Assembly (NCBI RefSeq): GCF_000470655.1
Contig: NC_021921.1
Coordinates: 2,719,566 to 2,743,565, forward strand
Direction: 5' to 3'
DNA length: 24,000 nt
Origin: Halorhabdus tiamatea SARL4B
Lineage (GTDB): Archaea > Halobacteriota > Halobacteria > Halobacteriales > Haloarculaceae
Positions 3,897-15,540 of the stretch are shown here, in pieces (the stretch's first letter is position 1; each line of letters starts with the position of its first letter). Both the position numbers and the translations under genes were made by a program. The notes below the pieces were generated by a model. That model saw only the letters and a program-made list of their open reading frames with translations. It was not told the origin of the DNA and did no database searches.

Positions 3897-3998
3897 ACCG
3901 TCTCGTTTGTCCCTATACGGCTTCCAGGGCCGATTCTGGGTGGCAAGCGGCCATCGGGAACTTCACAAGGCTTATGCGCGAGTTGGCAGTTTCCTTGC

Positions 3999-4004
3999 CT
4001 AATG
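3999..4004 (+). promoter_or_regulatory. TATA-like box (CTAATG) upstream of the aglB ATG at 4028
   Basis: AT-rich element centred about 26 nt upstream of the ATG at 4028. A second candidate, CCTATAC at about 3912-3918, would instead give a leadered transcript. Confidence 0.3.
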
Positions 4005-4027
4005 AGTGTTCGGAGGGTTCCCGACAT

Positions 4028-7000
4028 ATGAGTGGGCTGAATGACTACGTTAGCGATGATTCGCCTGTCAACGACGTCATCGAGTGGTTGTCGGCGTGGT
4101 ACCACGTCCTGATCGTCGCCGGCCTGTTCGGGTTCATGGTCTGGCTGCGAGCCCGAACGTGGGGTCGATTCCTCGTCGACGGGAAGGTCCTTTTCAGTGG
4201 GAACGACCCGTGGTATCACCTGCGCCAGATCTCCTATACGGTCTCACACTGGCCCTCGACGATGCCGTTCGATCCCTGGACGGAGTTCCCCACCGGAACG
4301 TTCGTCGGCCAGTTCGGGACGTTCATGGATCAGTTGGTCGCGACAGCGGCGCTCGTCATCGGCCTCGGAAGCCCGAGTGACGAATTGGTCCGTCTCGTCG
4401 CGCTGTTCTCCCCGGTCGTCTTCGGTGCGGCGATCGTCGTGCCGACGTACTACCTCGGCAAGCGGATGGGCGGTCGACTCGGTGGGGTGATCGCCGCGCT
4501 CGTCCTCGCGCTGTCGGCCGGGGAACTCCTCCAGCGGAGCCTCGTCGGGTTCGCGGACCACCAGGTCGTCGAGGCGCTGTTTCAGGCCCTCGCCGTCCTC
4601 GGAATTTTGATCGCCGTTCGGGTGGCACAGGAGGAAAAACCAGTCTACGAGCTGTTCGTCGACCGCGACTGGGCGGCGCTTCGTCGCCCGCTGGGATGGG
4701 CGACGCTGGCCGGCGCTGGCCTCGGACTGTATCTCTGGACGTGGCCGCCGGCGATCCTCCTCATCGGGATCCTGGGAGTCTACGTGACCATTCAACTGCC
4801 GGTCGCCTACCTCCGCGGCGAGAGTCCCGAACACGTCGGGATCGCGACAGCGACGATCTTCTCCGTGGCCGGTGTCCTCTCGCTGGTCTCGATCACTTCG
4901 TTCGACCTCAACATGGTCCAGCTATCGCTGGCCCAGCCGGCACTCGCATTCGCTGGCGTCGCGTGGTCACTCGGATTGGCCTGGCTCGCACGTGAATGGG
5001 ACCGACGTCATCTTGCGAGCTGGCAGTACCCCGCGACGGTCTTCGGTGGACTCGTCGTCGGTGCCGTCCTGCTCGCCGTACTGCTGCCGGACCTGTTCTG
5101 GTACTTCTTCGATCAGTTGCTCCGGTTCGTCGGCTTCACCGTCAACCCGACCGCCTCGGCCAGTACGGTCGGCGAAGTTCAGCCTCTGACGACGATCGAT
5201 CCACTCTGGCAGTGGTTCGGGGCCGCGCCATTTGTCGCGGTCGCTGGGGTCGGCATTGCCATCGCTCACCAGTACCTCAGCGACGAACTCAAGCCGGAGT
5301 TGCTCTTTGTCGCCCTCTGGTTCGTGTTCATGGTCGCGGCGACGTTCACCCAGCAGCGATTCGCCTACTACCTCACCGTTCCGACCGCGACGCTGACTGC
5401 CCTCGTCGTCACCTGGCTGTTCGGGTATCTCCGCTCGGCTGCTGACAGCAGCGACCTCGAGACCTATCAGGTCCTGACGATCCTCAGCGTGGTCGTCGCC
5501 GTCGTCCTGCCGATGGTCGTCGTCTATCCGACCGCCATCGACGTCTCCGGACAGAACGGTCCTGGTGGCGTCTCCGGCTGGGAGAGTAGCCTCGAGTGGA
5601 TGAGCGAGAACACGCCCGCCGTGGGCAACTACGGCGGGGCCGGCAACGCCGAAGACCTCGACTTCTATGGCACCTACGAGCGGACCGACGACTACGAGTA
5701 TCCCGACGGTGCCTACGGCGTGATGTCGTGGTGGGACTACGGTCACTGGATCACCCAGGAAGGCGAACGCATCCCCGTAGCCAACCCGTTCCAGGGCAAC
5801 GCCGACAAAGCAGCCAGGTTCTTGATCGCTCAAAACGAGTCGGAGGCGGCTGGTGCCCTCGACGTGGTGAGCGAAAACGAGACCGACGCCCAGACGCGCT
5901 ACGCGATGATCGACTGGAAGATGGCGACTGCCAACGGCGCTTTCGGCGGGAAGTACTTCGCGCCGCCGAACTTCCTCGATACCGTCTCTGAGTCGACGTA
6001 CTACCGCAAGGTTCGCGGACTCGTCTCGACCGAGGAGCAGTCCTCGATCACCAGCCAGTATTACACCGTCCAGAAACAGGCTTACTACGAGTCGATGTCA
6101 GCCCGGCTGTACCGGTATCACGGGAGCGCTGCCTCACCGGAGAACGTGCCGGGCGTCAGTACTCAGGGGCGGATTCCGGTCGTCGACTGGGAGGAGACCC
6201 CGGTGACGCTTTCCGACGGGACTGAAACGACCTGGAACGTCCCGGCGAGAAACGAGAACGGGTCGGCCCAGGCGCTGCGATGGTTCGACAACCGCACGGC
6301 CGCAGAAGCCTACGTCGCCGAGGACGGAACCGCTCAGATCGGTGGGCTCGGGAAGATTCCGGCCGAGGAGGTGCCCGCACTTGAACACTACCGGCTGGTC
6401 CACGTGAGCAACCAGAGCCAGAACTCGTTCACGGCGAGCCAGCCCGGCCTGCTGTGGTTCGCCCAACAGAACGCCCAGAATCAGCAGGTGCAGTATCAGT
6501 CTGGCGTGGGCGTCCGGGATCTGCTGGGCGGGACGTTCTCCGAACCCAACAGCGCCTGGACGAAGACCTTCGAGCGGGTCCCTGGCGCGACCGTCGAAGG
6601 AACTGGCCCGGCCAATACGAACGTCACAGCCTCCGTCGAGATGGAGATGCCCAACGCCAACGGGACGTTCACCTACCGCCAGCACGCCCAGACTGACGCT
6701 GACGGCGAGTTCACGATGACGCTACCGTACTCGACGACGGACTACGACGCGGTGAGTACCGAAGACGGCTACACGAACGTCAGCGTGCGAGCGAACGGGT
6801 CCTACGAGTTCCGAACACCGTCGACGACCCACTCGACGAACGAGAGCGTGACGGTGACTGCCTACACCGACACCGCGGACGTCTCCGACGAGCAAGTCGT
6901 CGGGACCGACGAGTCGGTCGTGGAAGTCAACCTGACCGAGTCCGTCCTCTTCGAACAGGATCTCAATTCCTCGGACGATTCGACGAACGAGACGGGCGAG

Positions 7001-7141
7001 AACACGACAGACGGCACCGAGACGAGCGACACGGACGGTGGATCGACCGGCGAAACGGACGAGAACACGACCGAATCGCTCGCGCCTGCAATCGCCGTCG
7101 GCGACGCACCGATCGCTCGCGCAGCTCCCACCGGCTACTAA
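4028..7141 (+). CDS. aglB: archaeal oligosaccharyltransferase AglB (STT3 family)
   Basis: Catalytic WWDYGHW motif (VMSWWDYGHWITQEG). The N-terminal half has many transmembrane segments and a GNDPWYHLR loop. A large C-terminal soluble region follows. The longest ORF begins at ATG 3974; ATG 4028 (MSGLNDYV...) is preferred because of the TATA spacing, but the start is uncertain. Confidence 0.93.
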   Translation: MSGLNDYVSDDSPVNDVIEWLSAWYHVLIVAGLFGFMVWLRARTWGRFLVDGKVLFSGNDPWYHLRQISYTVSHWPSTMPFDPWTEFPTGTFVGQFGTFMDQLVATAALVIGLGSPSDELVRLVALFSPVVFGAAIVVPTYYLGKRMGGRLGGVIAALVLALSAGELLQRSLVGFADHQVVEALFQALAVLGILIAVRVAQEEKPVYELFVDRDWAALRRPLGWATLAGAGLGLYLWTWPPAILLIGILGVYVTIQLPVAYLRGESPEHVGIATATIFSVAGVLSLVSITSFDLNMVQLSLAQPALAFAGVAWSLGLAWLAREWDRRHLASWQYPATVFGGLVVGAVLLAVLLPDLFWYFFDQLLRFVGFTVNPTASASTVGEVQPLTTIDPLWQWFGAAPFVAVAGVGIAIAHQYLSDELKPELLFVALWFVFMVAATFTQQRFAYYLTVPTATLTALVVTWLFGYLRSAADSSDLETYQVLTILSVVVAVVLPMVVVYPTAIDVSGQNGPGGVSGWESSLEWMSENTPAVGNYGGAGNAEDLDFYGTYERTDDYEYPDGAYGVMSWWDYGHWITQEGERIPVANPFQGNADKAARFLIAQNESEAAGALDVVSENETDAQTRYAMIDWKMATANGAFGGKYFAPPNFLDTVSESTYYRKVRGLVSTEEQSSITSQYYTVQKQAYYESMSARLYRYHGSAASPENVPGVSTQGRIPVVDWEETPVTLSDGTETTWNVPARNENGSAQALRWFDNRTAAEAYVAEDGTAQIGGLGKIPAEEVPALEHYRLVHVSNQSQNSFTASQPGLLWFAQQNAQNQQVQYQSGVGVRDLLGGTFSEPNSAWTKTFERVPGATVEGTGPANTNVTASVEMEMPNANGTFTYRQHAQTDADGEFTMTLPYSTTDYDAVSTEDGYTNVSVRANGSYEFRTPSTTHSTNESVTVTAYTDTADVSDEQVVGTDESVVEVNLTESVLFEQDLNSSDDSTNETGENTTDGTETSDTDGGSTGETDENTTESLAPAIAVGDAPIARAAPTGY

Positions 7142-7144
7142 ATC

Positions 7145-8110
7145 GTGTCTACGGAACAGTCACCCTCGGCTCTCGACGTTCGCGCCTGGGTGGTGATCTA
7201 CCTCAAGGGGGTTGCGATGGGGACGGCCGACTCGGTCCCTGGCGTCTCCGGCGGGACGATCGCGCTCATCACCGGCATCTACGAGCGGTTGATCAGCGCC
7301 ATTGCGACACTCGATCCCCGGGCCGCCAGACACCTCCTCCGGGTGCATCACGCAAACGGCCGACAGGCGCTGGTCAGCCGCTTGCTCGCGATGGATGTCC
7401 CGTTCCTGGTCGTTCTCGGGTCCGGTGTCGCGACGGCGATCGTGGTCGTCTCGCGGGTGATGCACGCGGCACTCGCCGACGCACGAGCGCTTACGTTCGC
7501 GTTCTTCTTCGGGTTGATCGCCGCGTCGGCGGTCGTCCTCTACGAACACGTCTCGGTCGCCACGCCCGGGCGGATCGCCGCCGCGGTCATCGGGTTCGCG
7601 CTCGCCTTTCTCGTCTCGGGCGTTTCGGCTGGTTCGGAAGCCTCCCACGCGTTGCCGTTCGTCTTCGTGGCGGGGGCTATCGCGATCACCGCGATGATCT
7701 TGCCGGGCGTCTCGGGGGCGTTCTTCCTCGTCCTCCTCGGCCAATACGACCACCTGACGACGGTCCTCAAACGGTTCGTCGACCGGTTGGTCGGCCTCGC
7801 GGTCGGTGACGCGACGCTCGCCGACGTATTCGACCTCGGGACGACTGTCCTGACGTTCGGGGTCGGCGCGATTCTCGGCTTGCTCGCGTTCGCCCGGGTC
7901 GTCCAGTGGGCGCTCGCGACCTACCGGGCGGCGACGTTGACCTTCCTCGTGAGTTTGATGGTCGGGGCGCTCCGGTTGCCCGCCATCGAGGTTCTCGACA
8001 ACACCGCTGCCTGGACGCCGGGGACGACGGTCGCGACGCTCGCGGCTGGCGGCGTCGGTGCGCTCGCGGTCCTCCTGTTGGATCGGTACACGGAGTCGCT
8101 GTCGTACTGA
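7145..8110 (+). CDS. DUF368 family membrane protein (PopT-like putative polyprenyl-phosphate translocase)
   Basis: 321-aa polytopic membrane ORF with the duplicated DUF368 signature: GTADSVPGVSGGTIALITGIYERL and AMILPGVSGAFFLVLLGQYDHL. The GTG start lies 3 nt after the aglB stop. Confidence 0.87.
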   Translation: MSTEQSPSALDVRAWVVIYLKGVAMGTADSVPGVSGGTIALITGIYERLISAIATLDPRAARHLLRVHHANGRQALVSRLLAMDVPFLVVLGSGVATAIVVVSRVMHAALADARALTFAFFFGLIAASAVVLYEHVSVATPGRIAAAVIGFALAFLVSGVSAGSEASHALPFVFVAGAIAITAMILPGVSGAFFLVLLGQYDHLTTVLKRFVDRLVGLAVGDATLADVFDLGTTVLTFGVGAILGLLAFARVVQWALATYRAATLTFLVSLMVGALRLPAIEVLDNTAAWTPGTTVATLAAGGVGALAVLLLDRYTESLSY

Positions 8111-8172
8111 CAGCTCGCGCCGACGGGATCCGAGTCGGTAGCGTTTTCCCCACGCTGGGCCTGCCAGAGCGT

Positions 8173-9243
8173 ATGCGCGTCCTCAACTATCTCGATTTCG
8201 AGCGGTATCTCGGTTCTTCCGGGATCACCACGGCGGCCAGTCACCAGCGGAGGGCGCTGGCCGGGCGAGGCGTCGAGGTGGAAACGTCGCCCTGGGACGG
8301 TCGAAACCCGCTGACTGCCAGCCTCTCGAATCTCGGCACCGATTCGGTATGGACCGACTTCGACGTGGCTCACTGTAACCTCATCGGCCCCGGGTCGATC
8401 GCCGTCGCCAGGCACGCAAAGCGCCAGGATATCCCCCTCATCCTGCACTCTCACGTCACTCGCGAGGACTTCCAGGAGAGCTTTCGGGGGTCGAACCAGA
8501 TCTCGAAGCCGCTCGGTCGCTATCTCCGGTGGTTCTATTCGCAGGCTGACCTCGTGCTCTGTCCCAGTGAATACACCCGCCGGGTGCTCGAGTCCTATCC
8601 CGTCTCGGCCCCGATCCGACCGATGACCAACGGCGTCGACCTCGACGCACTCGACGGCTACGAGAAGTTCCAGGCCTCCGCCAGGGAGAAACACGACCTC
8701 GACGGCGTCGTCGTCTTCGCCGTCGGGCAGGTCTTCGAGCGCAAGGGACTCACCACGTTCTGCCGGGTCGCCCAGCAAACCCCCTACGACTTCGCGTGGT
8801 TCGGTCCCTACAGCACGAGCCCGCTGGCCTCGAAGACGGTCAAACGCTGGACGCAGAACCCACCGGAGAACGTCACTTTCACCGGCTGGGTCGAGGACAT
8901 TCGGGAAGCCTACGGCGCGGGCGACATCTACCTGTTCCCCACCAAAACCGAGAACCAGGGCATCGCAGTCCTCGAGGCGATGGCCGCCGGGAAGGCCGTC
9001 GTCATCCGGGACATTCCGGTCTTCGAGGAGTTCTTCACCGACGGCGAGGACTGTCTGAAAGCCGAGACTGACGCGGAGTTCCGCGAGGCGGTCGAACGCC
9101 TCGCCGAGAACCCCGAACTCCGCGAGCGGCTGGGCGAGAACGCTCGCGAGACGGCTGAACAACACAGTCTGGATCGCGTCGGCGAGGAACTCGTCTCGGT
9201 CTATCGGGCACTGCTCGACGGGGACGATCCGATCGAGGCCTGA
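8173..9243 (+). CDS. glycosyltransferase family 4 (GT-B fold)
   Basis: MRVLNYLDFERYLGSSGITTAASHQRRAL is a typical GT4 N-terminus. The C-terminal motif ENQGIAVLEAMAAGKAVVIRDIPVFEEF is an EX7E-type motif. The ORF track extends to 7906, but that extension overlaps the DUF368 gene and is Arg-rich, so ATG 8173 was chosen. Confidence 0.87.
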   Translation: MRVLNYLDFERYLGSSGITTAASHQRRALAGRGVEVETSPWDGRNPLTASLSNLGTDSVWTDFDVAHCNLIGPGSIAVARHAKRQDIPLILHSHVTREDFQESFRGSNQISKPLGRYLRWFYSQADLVLCPSEYTRRVLESYPVSAPIRPMTNGVDLDALDGYEKFQASAREKHDLDGVVVFAVGQVFERKGLTTFCRVAQQTPYDFAWFGPYSTSPLASKTVKRWTQNPPENVTFTGWVEDIREAYGAGDIYLFPTKTENQGIAVLEAMAAGKAVVIRDIPVFEEFFTDGEDCLKAETDAEFREAVERLAENPELRERLGENARETAEQHSLDRVGEELVSVYRALLDGDDPIEA

Positions 9244-9371
9244 GTGCCGGGCCGCTTTGCTTTCGAGACGCCAACAGTACAACTAACTACGCCCGCCGAG
9301 ACAGGGGTATTCACGGATGAATCGAGACAGCGCCCCCCGATCCGGGGATCGACAGACAGGAGCGTGGGAAC

Positions 9372-10388
9372 ATGGTCGCTGACACGGGGTATTTCGCGAT
9401 CGAGATACTGGTCGTGGCGTTTGCGGGCGGCGCGATCGGGGCTGCCGTCGGCGGGATGGCCGCGCTTTCCCTCTCTGGGCTCGCGCTCGTCGTCGGCGAG
9501 GTTGCCAATGCTGCGTCGGGGGCCGCGACAGGGAGCCCCGCGGCGCTCGGACTGACGTCGCTGGTCGGATACGGCCCGGCGCTTGGCCCCCACGTCGCCT
9601 TCGCCGGCGGCGTCGCGGCGGCAGCCTATCTCGGGCGACACGAGGACGCCGATTCGTTCGCGTACCACCGGGCGAAAGACGTCTTCACGCCGAACGGCGC
9701 GCAGGTCGACGCGCTGCTCGCCGGCGGCGCGTTCGGCGTGATCGGGTATTGGCTGGCTGCACTCTCGCGGACGCTTGGGCTCCCGGTCGATCCAGTCATG
9801 GCGAGCGTCGTCGTCTCGGGCTTGCTCGCCAGAATCGCATTCGGATACCCGCTGGTCGGGTTCATTCGGGACGGCCTCCTCGACGTGTCTCCCTCCGAGC
9901 GCGGGGAGATCCGGACGGCGTTGGATGGGACAGAGGAGGGCGAGGGAACTCGACTGGCCGTCGAACCGTGGGCCCCACAGCAACACCGGTGGCTCCAGCA
10001 GGCACTTCTCGGTGTTGTCGTCGGTGTCTTCGCTGCCTACGTGACCTACGTGACCCAGCGGTACTACCTCGCGTTCGGTATCGCGATGGTCACGCTCGCC
10101 ATTACGGTCGCCGGGGTCGATCGGTTGCCGATCGTCCACCACATCGCGTTCCCGGCCGGTATCGCCGCATTGTCGATGCCAGCCCACGGAATCGAAGTGG
10201 CGCTCGCTCTCGGTGTCGGCTTCGGTATCGCGAGCGCACTGATCGCCGAACTCGGCGGGCGGCTCCTTTACGCCCACGCGGATACGCACGTCGACCCACC
10301 AGCGATCGCCATCACGGTGACGACGCTCGCAATCGGGTTGCTGACGACTGTCGGCATCTTCGAGCAGGGACTCATTCCGGCGTTGTAG
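9372..10388 (+). CDS. hypothetical polytopic membrane protein
   Basis: 338-aa ORF rich in Gly, Ala and Val with about 8 or more hydrophobic segments and GC-rich third codon positions. The longer antisense ORF 9201..10469 has Arg/Asp-rich nonsense-like composition. I recognise no family. Confidence 0.65.
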   Translation: MVADTGYFAIEILVVAFAGGAIGAAVGGMAALSLSGLALVVGEVANAASGAATGSPAALGLTSLVGYGPALGPHVAFAGGVAAAAYLGRHEDADSFAYHRAKDVFTPNGAQVDALLAGGAFGVIGYWLAALSRTLGLPVDPVMASVVVSGLLARIAFGYPLVGFIRDGLLDVSPSERGEIRTALDGTEEGEGTRLAVEPWAPQQHRWLQQALLGVVVGVFAAYVTYVTQRYYLAFGIAMVTLAITVAGVDRLPIVHHIAFPAGIAALSMPAHGIEVALALGVGFGIASALIAELGGRLLYAHADTHVDPPAIAITVTTLAIGLLTTVGIFEQGLIPAL

Positions 10389-10495
10389 GGCGAAATCAGT
10401 GCAGGCGTCCCGGTCTGGGTCGATCGACGGCGACGAACGGGTGTGCCGGCGATCGATCGCCCGTCTCACGCTCGCCGAGACGCCTCGGGGCGCGC

Positions 10496-11368: not shown

Positions 11369-13042
11369 ATGTCAGAACCAGATCGCCCACGCGACGGGGG
11401 AGGCAACGCAAATGTCGGGACAGCCACACGGACAGGTGACGAGGTCGCCGACCGCGGGCCACTCGGCGCGGCAAAGGACTGGCTCGTTCGCGTCAAGCGT
11501 TCCCTTGCAGGATCGCACGTCGTCGTCGAGAATTACGACCCGCTCCGACACGAACACTTGACGAACTTCGGCGGACTTCCCGGGATGAACGAGATCGAAC
11601 GCTACTGGCTGAACGCGCCCTACGCGTTCGCGTCGATCAATTACGACCCGGAGCAGGACGAACACCGCTATCACGTCGTCGAACCCGGTCTTGACGACTT
11701 CGAGCGCGATCTCTTGGATCGGCTGTTCGAGGACGTCCGCGATCCGCTGTTGTATCGGGCGAACGTCGACGAAGACCCGGAAGGCGCGTTGCTCTCGGAA
11801 CTTCGGGAGCGCTTAGAGGAGTACGGCGTCGACGTCCGGATCGAGACGGTCCATCGGCTCTTCTATTACCTCTTCAGGGAGTTTCAGGGCTACGGCAAGA
11901 TCGATCCACTGATGCACGACCCTGCGATCGAGGACATCTCGTGTGACGGGGCGGGATTGCCGATCTTCATCTATCACGACGGCTATACCGACATCGAGAC
12001 GAACCTGACCTACGACGCCGCCGAACTCGAGAACGTCGTCGTTCAACTTGCCCAGCGCTCGGGTCGACACATCTCGGTTGCCGATCCCGTCGTCTCGACG
12101 ACACTGCCCGACGGTTCACGGATCGAACTCGCTCTTGGGACTGAAGTGACGCCACGCGGGTCGGCCTTTACGATTCGGAAGTACGCCGAGGACCCGTTCA
12201 CACCGATCGACCTGCTCGAGTACGGCACCTTCAGCAAGGAGATGCTCGCGTATCTCTGGCTCGCCATCGAGCACAACAAGTCACTGCTGTTCGCCGGCGG
12301 GACCGCGGCCGGGAAGACGACTTCGATGAACGCCGTCTCGATGTTTATCCCGCCGCGAGCGAAGGTTCTCACCATCGAAGACACCCGCGAACTCTCGCTG
12401 TATCACGACAACTGGTTGTCGTCGGTGACGCGCGAGCGCTTCGACGAGGACGACATCTCAATGTACGACCTCCTGCGGTCGGCCCTGCGCCATCGCCCGG
12501 AGTACATCGTGGTCGGTGAGGTGCGCGGCGAGGAGGCGATCACGCTGTTCCAGGCGATGAACACCGGTCACACGACGTTCTCGACGATGCATGCCGACTC
12601 GGTCCAGACGGTCATCAATCGCTTAGAGAACGAGCCGATCAACGTCCCGCGACCGATGGTCCAGAGCCTGGACGTCCTGGCCGTCCAGGTGTTGACCCGC
12701 CAGGGCGACGAGCGCGTGCGTCGGGCGAAGACGCTGGCGGAGATCGAGGGTATCGATCAGCGGACGGGCGAACTCGACTACGCCAACGCCTACGAGTGGC
12801 AGTCAAACACGGACAGCTACGCCCAACGGGACTCCTCGTTGCTCGAAGGGATCCGCGAGGAACGCGGCTGGAGTCAGTCCGAACTCCTCCGTGAACTCGA
12901 CGATCGAGAGCGCTTTCTCGCCCATCTCCAGGCGGAGGGCGTCTCGGACTACCGCCGGTTTACGTCGTTCGTTAATCGATACTACGCCGATAAGGACGCC
13001 GTCATGTCGCGAATCGAGGGCGAATCCACCACGGAGACATGA
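11369..13042 (+). CDS. type II/IV secretion system ATPase (archaeal FlaI/ArlI/PilB family)
   Basis: Walker A is GGTAAGKTTSMNA, the Asp box is LTIEDTRELS, Walker B is RPEYIVVGEVRGEEA and the His box is GHTTFSTMHADS. The FlaI-type N-domain signature ERYWLNAPYAFASINYD...YHVVEP is also present. Confidence 0.93.
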   Translation: MSEPDRPRDGGGNANVGTATRTGDEVADRGPLGAAKDWLVRVKRSLAGSHVVVENYDPLRHEHLTNFGGLPGMNEIERYWLNAPYAFASINYDPEQDEHRYHVVEPGLDDFERDLLDRLFEDVRDPLLYRANVDEDPEGALLSELRERLEEYGVDVRIETVHRLFYYLFREFQGYGKIDPLMHDPAIEDISCDGAGLPIFIYHDGYTDIETNLTYDAAELENVVVQLAQRSGRHISVADPVVSTTLPDGSRIELALGTEVTPRGSAFTIRKYAEDPFTPIDLLEYGTFSKEMLAYLWLAIEHNKSLLFAGGTAAGKTTSMNAVSMFIPPRAKVLTIEDTRELSLYHDNWLSSVTRERFDEDDISMYDLLRSALRHRPEYIVVGEVRGEEAITLFQAMNTGHTTFSTMHADSVQTVINRLENEPINVPRPMVQSLDVLAVQVLTRQGDERVRRAKTLAEIEGIDQRTGELDYANAYEWQSNTDSYAQRDSSLLEGIREERGWSQSELLRELDDRERFLAHLQAEGVSDYRRFTSFVNRYYADKDAVMSRIEGESTTET

Positions 13043-15540
13043 GCCTCACGGGATACCTGCCACTGGTCGCCGCACTCGCGCTCGCCGGAGCGCTCGCGCT
13101 GACCCGCTTCAGCCCGCGTCTCGACAGGGTGTTCACCCGGATCGCTCGCCAGTATTTCAGCCAGCACATCGGTGAGTCACCGGCCCGCGAGCGCCTGCTC
13201 GCGTCCGCGTACGTCGAGACGACCTACCGGGTGTACGCGGCCAAGACGCACCTCTACACCGCACTCACAGCACTCATTGGCGGGATGATCGGCGTCTACG
13301 TCGTCGGCGGAGCCCTGATCGTGATCCCGACCATCGCCGCCGTCCTCGCCGACCTCCCGTCGGTCATGGGCGACGTCCTGGGCAATCGGAACCTCGAAAT
13401 CGTCCTCCCGCCTGACCAGGTGTTCCTCGTCCTTACCGTCGGTGGGGTCGTGATCGGCGGGCTTTCCGCAGTTGTGACCTACGTTGCTCGCTGGCAACTC
13501 CCGGCAGGTGACGCCGAAGTTCGCCGTCGGGGAATCAACGAAGCGCTCCCCCGGACGGTCGCGTTTATTTATGCGCTCTCCCGTGGAGGCCTTGCCTTCC
13601 CTGATGTCATGCGAACGCTCGGGCGTAACCGGGAGATCTACGGCGACGCGGCCGACGAGATGAGCGTCGCCGTCCGGGAGATGGACCTCTTCGGGACGGA
13701 CATGATCTCGGCGATCAGGCGGGCGGCCCACCGCAGTCCCAGCGACACGTTCCGGACGTTCGGCGAGAACCTCGCGAGCGTCCTCGCCAGCGGCCAGCAG
13801 ATCCCCCAGTTTCTGGAAGACCAGTACGACCGCCTCCAGGAGGAGGCCGAGCAACGCCAGGAGGAAGTGCTCGAACTGCTCGCGACTATCGCCGAAGCCT
13901 ACGTCACGACGCTGGTCGCCGGCATCCTCTTCCTGTTGACGATCCTGCTGGTGTTCGGGTTGACGGTGACCGATACGCTCCCCTTCCTCCAGTTGCTCAC
14001 GTACCTCATCATTCCGCTGTCGAACGCGTTGTTCGTCGTCTTCCTGGTGCAGAAACTCGAGGAACTCGGCGTCGCCCGGGAGAGTGGCGTCGCGGCCCTG
14101 GAAGGCGAGACGCCGGATACGATCGCTCCCGAGACACCGACGGCGACCGCCGACGGCGGTCACCTCCCGCGGCTGTCGGCCGGCCGGTCACAGCTCCAGT
14201 TGTACGACCGGATCAGTCGGTTCAAGCGCGTCCTCCGTCGCCCGATCCAGACGATCATCTGGAACCCGACGCGGATCTTCTATCTCACGGTCCCGATTGC
14301 GCTCCTGTGGCTGGCCGTTCGTGCGCCTGGAACGATCACGGAGTACGGGTTCAACCTCCGACTGGCTGATGATTTGATCATTCAGGTCTCTCTGTTCGTG
14401 ATCGGTACGTTCGCCATCGTCCGGGAGATCTACTCCCGGCGGATCGACCGCATCGAGGCCGCGACGCCGGAGTTGCTCGAACGGCTGGCGAGCCTCAACG
14501 AGGCCGGGATGTCCTTCGTCGAGAGTCTCGACCGGGTCCGGGATTCGGATCTCGGCGTCCTGACCGACGAGGTAAATCGCATCTGGACGGACGTTTCGAT
14601 GGGAGCGAACGCCGCCGACGCCCTGCGTCGGTTCGGCCGGCGAGTCCGAACAGCTTCGATCGCCCGGGTCGTCACGTTGCTCACCCACGCGATGCGGGCG
14701 AGCGGTCGCCTCGGACCTGTCCTGCGGATCGCCTCCGCACAGGCTCGTTCGGACCTCGAACTCCGTCGGGAGCGCCGCCAGCAGATGTTCACCTACCTGG
14801 TCGTGATCTACGTCTCGTTTCTGGTCTTTCTGGTCATCATCTTCGCCGTCGAGGAGGTACTCGTCCCGAGCCTCCCTGATAACGTTCCCGTCCCCGAGTC
14901 CAACCGCCTGGGCGTCGACGTCACCGCCTTCGCGAGACTCGGACAGGTCAACAAGCCCGCCTACACGCTGATCTTCCTGCACGCCGCGCTGATCCAGGCA
15001 GTGTTGTCGGGATTCGTGGCCGGGCTCCTCGGCGAGGGAACGCTCAAGGACGGCGCGAAACACGCCGCGATATTGCTCGCGATCGCGTACGTTGCGATCC
15101 TCCTCGTGACCTCGCCGGTCGCGTCACTGACCATGCAGGATCAGGAGGCCCTCGGCGACGGCGTCACGATCGACTCGGTCTCGACGTCGGAAGGCGGATT
15201 CCTGGTGATCCACGACCGGACGGCCGACGGGGCGATCGTGGGTCACACCGGCTACCTGCCGCCGGGCGAGCACACGAACGTCCGCGTTCGACTCGACGAG
15301 ACCCTCCAGCGCCAGACGACCCTGGTGGCCGTGCCGTATCTCGACGGGAACAGTGACAAGCAGTTCACCATCGGGGCCGATCAGCCCTACGGGACGGGCG
15401 GCGATCCGGTGGCTGTCGACGCACGCATCACGCCAGTCGAGCCCGAGTCGAGTCAGTCGCGGGCGGTCGGCGATGGCATCGCAGCCACGGTCGGAGACCG
15501 CGCGATGCCTGCATCGCCGGCGTTGCCGATCAGTCGCTGA
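13039..15540 (+). CDS. FlaJ/PilC/TadC-type (T2SS F family) membrane platform protein with an extra C-terminal soluble domain
   Basis: The 833-aa ORF overlaps the ATPase stop (ATGA at 13039-13042). It has two GspF/TadC-like cytoplasmic helical modules, each followed by transmembrane helices, as in FlaJ. The final ~140 aa form a non-membrane domain. Confidence 0.85.
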   Translation: MSLTGYLPLVAALALAGALALTRFSPRLDRVFTRIARQYFSQHIGESPARERLLASAYVETTYRVYAAKTHLYTALTALIGGMIGVYVVGGALIVIPTIAAVLADLPSVMGDVLGNRNLEIVLPPDQVFLVLTVGGVVIGGLSAVVTYVARWQLPAGDAEVRRRGINEALPRTVAFIYALSRGGLAFPDVMRTLGRNREIYGDAADEMSVAVREMDLFGTDMISAIRRAAHRSPSDTFRTFGENLASVLASGQQIPQFLEDQYDRLQEEAEQRQEEVLELLATIAEAYVTTLVAGILFLLTILLVFGLTVTDTLPFLQLLTYLIIPLSNALFVVFLVQKLEELGVARESGVAALEGETPDTIAPETPTATADGGHLPRLSAGRSQLQLYDRISRFKRVLRRPIQTIIWNPTRIFYLTVPIALLWLAVRAPGTITEYGFNLRLADDLIIQVSLFVIGTFAIVREIYSRRIDRIEAATPELLERLASLNEAGMSFVESLDRVRDSDLGVLTDEVNRIWTDVSMGANAADALRRFGRRVRTASIARVVTLLTHAMRASGRLGPVLRIASAQARSDLELRRERRQQMFTYLVVIYVSFLVFLVIIFAVEEVLVPSLPDNVPVPESNRLGVDVTAFARLGQVNKPAYTLIFLHAALIQAVLSGFVAGLLGEGTLKDGAKHAAILLAIAYVAILLVTSPVASLTMQDQEALGDGVTIDSVSTSEGGFLVIHDRTADGAIVGHTGYLPPGEHTNVRVRLDETLQRQTTLVAVPYLDGNSDKQFTIGADQPYGTGGDPVAVDARITPVEPESSQSRAVGDGIAATVGDRAMPASPALPISR

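Follow-up and report, generated by a model that had tools for sequence, protein, structure and literature searches.

Among the closest described relatives of the protein considered here are the bacterial DUF368 proteins VCA0040 of Vibrio cholerae and PopT (SAOUHSC_00846) of Staphylococcus aureus, whose proposed activity is the inward translocation of a polyprenyl monophosphate. Bacterial PopT was reported to lower surface-exposed undecaprenyl phosphate (UndP, C55-P) and to confer resistance to MX2401 (10.1101/2022.02.03.479048). In the same study, Roney and Rudner found 37% of the archaeal duf368 genes in N-glycosylation clusters, often beside the oligosaccharyltransferase gene aglB (Fig 3B/S13 therein), and proposed that the archaeal proteins recycle the dolichyl phosphate (Dol-P) freed by AglB (10.1101/2022.02.03.479048). 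Sit et al. found that DUF368 is enriched in Halobacteria and that the growth defect of V. cholerae delta-vca0040 under alkaline conditions is complemented, at least in part, by the Haloferax volcanii homologue HVO_RS12060 (PMC9876793). We analyzed a stretch of 24,000 nucleotides from Halorhabdus tiamatea SARL4B (NC_021921.1, positions 2,719,566 to 2,743,565 of the forward strand; the whole stretch is hereafter called the window, and positions are given in its own numbering), in which a DUF368 gene (7145..8110, plus strand) follows directly on aglB (3974..7141, plus strand). A first-pass annotation, made from the letters alone, had presented this DUF368 protein as a candidate for Dol-P recycling and had implied that the proposal was new. 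The candidacy is supported as a hypothesis by the family match, the conserved pairing and the gene context in Halonotius described below. The novelty is not, as both the aglB-DUF368 pairing and the Dol-P recycling idea are already known, having been published in 2022-23 (10.1101/2022.02.03.479048; PMC9876793), and the locus in the window is a further orthologue of the published case. It had also stated that experiments have not yet tied any archaeal protein to Dol-P recycling, which holds broadly for archaeal hosts, with the qualification that the H. volcanii homologue has been tested in V. cholerae. A 2024 review of archaeal N-glycosylation mentions neither recycling, a flippase, a translocase, DedA nor Roney.

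The 321-residue product of the DUF368 gene was compared with PF04018, the Pfam model of the family (current name VCA0040-like, 'undecaprenyl phosphate translocase-like'). The search revealed a clear family member with a score of 213.4 bits (cut-off 26, E=4.8e-63), in which residues 25-277 were matched to positions 1-226 of the 246 profile positions. The duplicated signature that had been noticed on first inspection in a membrane protein starting at 7145 was located precisely, with PGVSGG at residue 32 (nucleotides 7238-7255) and PGVSGA at residue 187 (nucleotides 7703-7720), so that each half of the protein carries one PGxSG(G/A) motif. The literature describes PF04018 proteins as inverted-repeat transporters of two homologous halves, in each of which such a motif follows a transmembrane helix. 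The two halves also align to each other with 25% identity (BLASTP, E=2e-5). An AlphaFold2 model, for which a 12-sequence alignment served as the input, was entirely helical with a mean predicted local distance difference test (pLDDT) score of 79.5 and showed short broken helices after each motif. The window protein has the PF04018 domain, the duplicated PGxSG motif and the all-helical, transporter-like model in common with VCA0040 and PopT, and inward polyprenyl monophosphate translocation is the activity proposed for all three. They differ in the lipid and in the pathway served, since the bacterial proteins act on C55-P in peptidoglycan synthesis, whereas the window protein would presumably act on α-saturated dolichyl phosphate in N-glycosylation. 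Among the NCBIfam polyprenyl-phosphate transporter models, the protein was closest to the V. cholerae type (NF052564, 191.4 bits) and scored 90.4 bits against the PopT model of the S. aureus type (NF052563), the cut-off being 400. Judged by these sequence scores, it is a relative within the family and an equivalog of neither characterized bacterial protein.

The nearest archaeal counterpart with experimental data is HVO_RS12060, the archaeal 'PopT' of H. volcanii, which resembles the window protein in its Pfam family, its length, its aglB neighborhood and the Dol-P recycling role proposed for it. Aligned over its full length, the Haloferax orthologue shares 50% identity with the window protein; the sequence compared was a 'MULTISPECIES Haloferax' protein and not that of H. 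volcanii itself. The two loci are similar but not identical. In Haloferax (L085:5256-10969 of our survey), an inverted aglM-like UDP-glucose dehydrogenase gene on the minus strand separates the plus-strand aglB and DUF368 genes, and the group lies inside a large agl cluster. In contrast, aglB and DUF368 abut with only 3 nucleotides between them in the window, and apart from a single family 4 glycosyltransferase (GT4) gene no further agl genes are found nearby. The top match of the window protein was 92% identical; among its named relatives, Halorhabdus species are the closest, with H. rudnickae best at 84%. Ahead of Met25 lies a peptide (VRxWxxVYLKG) that is shared across genera and was modelled as the first helix, and an 88%-identical Halorhabdus relative (locus L081) has an identical stop-ATC-GTG junction; for both reasons, the GTG start at 7145 is credible.

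The upstream gene was confirmed as aglB. The open reading frame of 1055 codons scored 840 bits against TIGR04154 (archaeo_STT3; cut-off 450), matched PF02516, PF22627 and PF18079 (the STT3, AglB_core and AglB_L1 domains) and contains the catalytic motif WWDYGHW at residue 586 (nucleotides 5729-5749); the models and the WWDYG motif together place its product in the AglB group of archaeal oligosaccharyltransferases of the STT3 family. The gene name, the motif and the end at 7141 were thus correctly read in the first-pass annotation, which had placed the start at ATG 4028; this is the second in-frame ATG, and the start may be either this codon or ATG 3974. The stop codon TAA occupies 7139-7141, and the junction, read directly from the sequence at 7139..7147 on the plus strand, is TAA-ATC-GTG, which bears out the earlier observation that DUF368 starts 3 nucleotides after aglB. 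A promoter would not fit into this junction, and co-transcription with translational coupling of aglB and DUF368 is therefore probable. With this gap, the locus belongs to the aglB-linked duf368 type described for archaea (10.1101/2022.02.03.479048, Fig 3B/S13). Close spacing is typical of the haloarchaeal loci, as the first plausible start codon of DUF368 lay at -11 to +11 nucleotides relative to the aglB stop in 17 of the 21 loci in which both gene ends could be read and 42-74 nucleotides beyond it in the remaining four. We also observed that aglB and DUF368 lie in one reading frame in the window. The same holds for about 9 of 22 haloarchaeal loci, hardly different from the third that chance alone would give, and there is thus no sign of a read-through aglB-DUF368 fusion.

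To describe how general the pairing is, we surveyed it from both genes. On the DUF368 side, one genome per GTDB species was scanned with a haloarchaeal DUF368 alignment, which yielded 80 loci, and aglB was sought around them by tblastn and with a locally built AglB profile. The haloarchaeal subset comprised 26 of the 80 loci, including one labelled Thermotogae (L015, 48% identity) that is evidently a mis-binned haloarchaeal contig. In 23 of these 26 loci (~88%), aglB was the immediate upstream neighbor and had the same orientation. Starting from aglB, we scanned metagenomes with an AglB alignment and obtained 80 haloarchaeal-type aglB loci, 59 of which had enough downstream sequence to be informative, and DUF368 was directly downstream on the same strand in 43 of the 59 (73%). 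With these counts, the adjacency is far beyond chance, and within the Halobacteria it is close to a rule. The possibility that it might be sporadic, which the first-pass annotation had considered, was not borne out. Exact-protein look-ups added two close relatives of the window with the pair as well as pairs in Natronorubrum, with a gap of 164 nucleotides, and in Halococcus, with an ATGA overlap. Conservation of the pair extends to 11 or more haloarchaeal genera, amid changing neighbors. In particular, agl-type GT2, GT4 and sulfatase genes flank it in Natronorubrum, pyrBI and a P450 gene flank it in Halococcus, and in the window its flanks are SBDS, the proteasome alpha subunit, DUF8054 and a type IV pilus-like locus, with DUF368 and the one GT4 gene as the only glycosylation-related neighbors of aglB. 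Since the flanking genes are unrelated, it is the pair as such that is conserved, and general synteny cannot account for it.

The haloarchaeal loci in which DUF368 stands apart from an abutting aglB were also compared. In Halonotius roseus (L012:5594-10945), DUF368 is the last of four genes that appear to form an operon, their junctions being overlaps or gaps of 3 nucleotides. The other three encode a 1026-residue GT2+PMT_2 (GT-C) fusion, a GT2 protein and a GtrA-family protein, and DUF368 starts 3 nucleotides after the GtrA-family gene; no aglB was present within 10 kb. By its gene content, this operon is a Gtr-like three-component system, whose GT-C enzyme would use a Dol-P-sugar and free Dol-P on the outer face, together with its own candidate carrier recycler. 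It provides a second, independent tie of DUF368 to a GT-C enzyme that consumes Dol-P-sugars on the outer face. The arrangement mirrors the logic of the B. subtilis yngABC and ykcBC loci discussed by Roney and Rudner, in which DedA/UptA lies beside GT-C/GT2 operons for surface glycosylation and the recycler adjoins the enzyme that releases polyprenyl phosphate, as it does here; DedA is a protein family unrelated to DUF368. In Halobellus rufus (L027), DUF368 and an aglM-like UDP-glucose dehydrogenase gene form a divergent pair, with no aglB within 10 kb. At that locus tblastn matched DUF368 in two separate segments, possibly owing to a frameshift. A haloarchaeal metagenome-assembled genome (L029) has DUF368 without glycosylation neighbors.

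The direction of transport is the point on which a different assignment has to be weighed. DUF368 could act before AglB by flipping the loaded Dol-P-oligosaccharide or Dol-P-hexose outwards, and adjacency to aglB suits such a pre-transfer step equally well. Also in favor of this role, the archaeal lipid-linked oligosaccharide flippase has, to our knowledge, not been firmly identified, AglR being only a candidate. However, the bacterial family members have been assigned inward UndP transport; their loss raises surface-exposed UndP, and their overexpression protects against a UndP-binding antibiotic. Additionally, the Halonotius operon already has a GtrA protein for the outward step, the GtrA family being the one usually proposed to flip loaded polyprenyl-phosphate sugars. 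We therefore regard an outward role as highly improbable.

A further possibility is that DUF368 is a general transporter of polyprenyl phosphate or of another lipid or ion, and that its pairing with aglB is inherited synteny without functional coupling. Several observations fit this explanation, and most of them weigh against Dol-P recycling at the same time. In the methanogen and Thermoplasmata loci that were sampled, AglB was found near DUF368 in 0 of 11, as searched with a haloarchaeal AglB profile in the available flanks; this profile is biased towards haloarchaeal proteins and some flanks were short, so that weak homologues could have escaped. The neighbors sampled in these loci were housekeeping genes (RLI, DNA ligase, aquaporin, phosphoenolpyruvate carboxylase and CNNM). 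The linkage is therefore lineage-specific, and its frequency in the Halobacteria partly reflects shared ancestry. Similarly, 16 of the 59 informative haloarchaeal aglB loci (about a quarter, ~27%) have no DUF368 nearby and are followed by heterogeneous genes, and Pfam scans of 20 neighboring open reading frames revealed neither DedA nor any recurring substitute in these 16 loci; displacement of DUF368 by the non-orthologous DedA/UptA was accordingly rejected. The locus of the metagenome-assembled genome mentioned above also belongs on this side. Three other points bear on the Dol-P assignment specifically. Neither bacterial NCBIfam model is matched at its equivalog cut-off, which means that substrate and direction are extrapolated over roughly 35-40% identity; we found no solved structure of the DUF368 fold with which a lipid-binding groove could be checked; and in the later literature we found no genetic or biochemical study of DUF368 in an archaeal host. 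Against an uncoupled general transporter, the pair outlasts a complete turnover of its flanking genes across families, and its junction is typically 11 nucleotides or less. Where DUF368 does lie apart from aglB, it usually still stands beside glycosylation genes, whether Gtr-like as in Halonotius or aglM-like as in Halobellus and Haloferax. Overall, we consider inherited synteny with a general transporter quite unlikely.

Recycling of Dol-P is the best supported of these readings, because three observations point to it: membership in the PF04018 family, an abutting pairing with aglB that is nearly obligatory in Halobacteria, and the Halonotius context. On this basis, the product of 7145..8110 is probably a polyprenyl-phosphate translocase that recycles Dol-P, as the orthologue in Halorhabdus of the DUF368 (PopT/VCA0040) protein linked to aglB in haloarchaea. 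In euryarchaea, the glycan donor of AglB is dolichyl monophosphate carrying the glycan at the outer face of the membrane, and the Dol-P by-product must regain the cytoplasmic leaflet. In the proposed cycle, AglB would move the glycan from its dolichyl-monophosphate carrier to asparagine on the outer face, leaving the phosphate of Dol-P outside; the DUF368 protein would then bring the head group of Dol-P back to the cytoplasmic leaflet, where the carrier could be reloaded. For UndP, genetic work has assigned this activity to bacterial PopT and VCA0040. Coupling of this transport to Na+ or pH gradients is possible, as has been suggested for V. cholerae. We infer the Dol-P substrate, the transport direction and the energy coupling from the bacterial homologues.

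A stronger version of the relationship was also considered, in which AglB and DUF368 would form an obligate two-gene module that is translationally coupled, with the two proteins possibly associated and Dol-P handed over directly from the AglB active site. We consider this version unlikely. If true, the core that is conserved in the N-glycosylation locus of haloarchaea would be this pair rather than the larger agl cluster. This version would explain why aglB keeps DUF368 where the other agl genes are located elsewhere, as in the window. It would also go further than the published figure of 37% of archaeal duf368 genes in glycosylation clusters.

Archaeal N-glycosylation has few steps left without an assigned protein, and the return of Dol-P to the cytoplasmic leaflet is one of them; the eukaryotic equivalent, through DedA relatives, is unassigned as well. 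The aglB-linked DUF368 protein is the leading archaeal candidate for this return, and the window provides one more clean example. Our survey sharpens the published picture modestly in that the linkage in Halobacteria is far above the archaeal average and the junctions are tight. It additionally contributes the lack of linkage in the methanogen and Thermoplasmata loci sampled and the Gtr-like context in Halonotius.

The gene downstream of the pair was examined as the other potential partner of DUF368. It encodes a GT4 glycosyltransferase of 356 residues (8173..9243, plus strand), matching PF13439 (6.9e-17) and PF00534 (3e-24), that is, with a Glyco_transf_4 N-terminal domain and a Glycos_transf_1 C-terminal domain. 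The first-pass annotation was right about the family and the strand; the longest open reading frame, starting at 7906, overlaps DUF368 and was rejected as the start in favor of the conserved ATG at 8173 (MRVLNYLDF...), 62 nucleotides past the DUF368 stop. The gene call at L081 gives a GT4 of the same length as that counted from this ATG. The best curated models were those of bacterial lipid (diacylglycerol) alpha-glucosyltransferases, namely IagA/BgsA (NF053513), with 278 bits against a cut-off of 460, and Dgs, with 208 bits, also below the cut-off; the score against Agl16 was only 32 bits. These similarities raise the possibility that the enzyme glycosylates archaeol glycolipids rather than acting in the N-glycan pathway; we found nothing useful in the literature on haloarchaeal glycolipid GT4 synthases. 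With such a gene 62 nucleotides away on the same strand, it might be argued that DUF368 serves the GT4 enzyme rather than AglB, for example by moving a glycolipid or a precursor. However, GT4 is found downstream of the pair in Halorhabdus only (L001, L081 and L082), whereas the link to aglB is class-wide. This restriction makes such a role scarcely credible, and the GT4 enzyme was rejected as the real partner of DUF368.

Two further gene arrangements were seen around DUF368 outside the Halobacteria. Many Bacteroidota loci, from Flavobacteriia and others (L044, L046, L051, L055, L058, L063, L064, L066, L067, L072-L075, L077 and L079), contain two DUF368 genes in tandem, the second of which starts 50-250 nucleotides after the first. 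The second copy is only 27-33% identical to the query, and the two look like an old paralogue pair. In three Methanomicrobiales loci (L032:10874-11797, L033:3355-4227 and L041:5443-6315), a conserved soluble protein of ~290 residues is encoded directly downstream of DUF368; the three proteins start with MFIGIDHGTT..., share 69-85% mutual identity and had no Pfam match at E≤1e-3.

The remainder of the window, which has a G+C content of ~65% and in which Rfam and transfer RNA (tRNA) scans found no RNA genes, showed several other features. The longest open reading frame at 9201-10469 lies on the minus strand and encodes 422 residues without a family match. The syntenic gene call in relatives is instead a plus-strand frame of 338 residues (9372-10388 in the window) annotated as DUF7973 (PF25928), a match that our local copy of Pfam did not report for the window protein. 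Further downstream, a gene for a PilB3-type ATPase of 557 residues overlaps one for a T2SSF (PilC-like) protein of 833 residues, which has a C-terminal DUF7282 domain (together 11369-15540, plus strand; type IV pilus-like). Both of these genes are kept in the Halorhabdus relatives L081 and L082, whose DUF368 proteins are 88% identical to that of the window. The DUF8054-aglB gap of the window (3897-3973) is just 77 nucleotides long and lacks a TnpB / Cas12f1-like_TNB gene that is located between DUF8054 and aglB in these two relatives (L081:5505-6731 and L082:2581-3807), where it encodes a protein of 408 residues.

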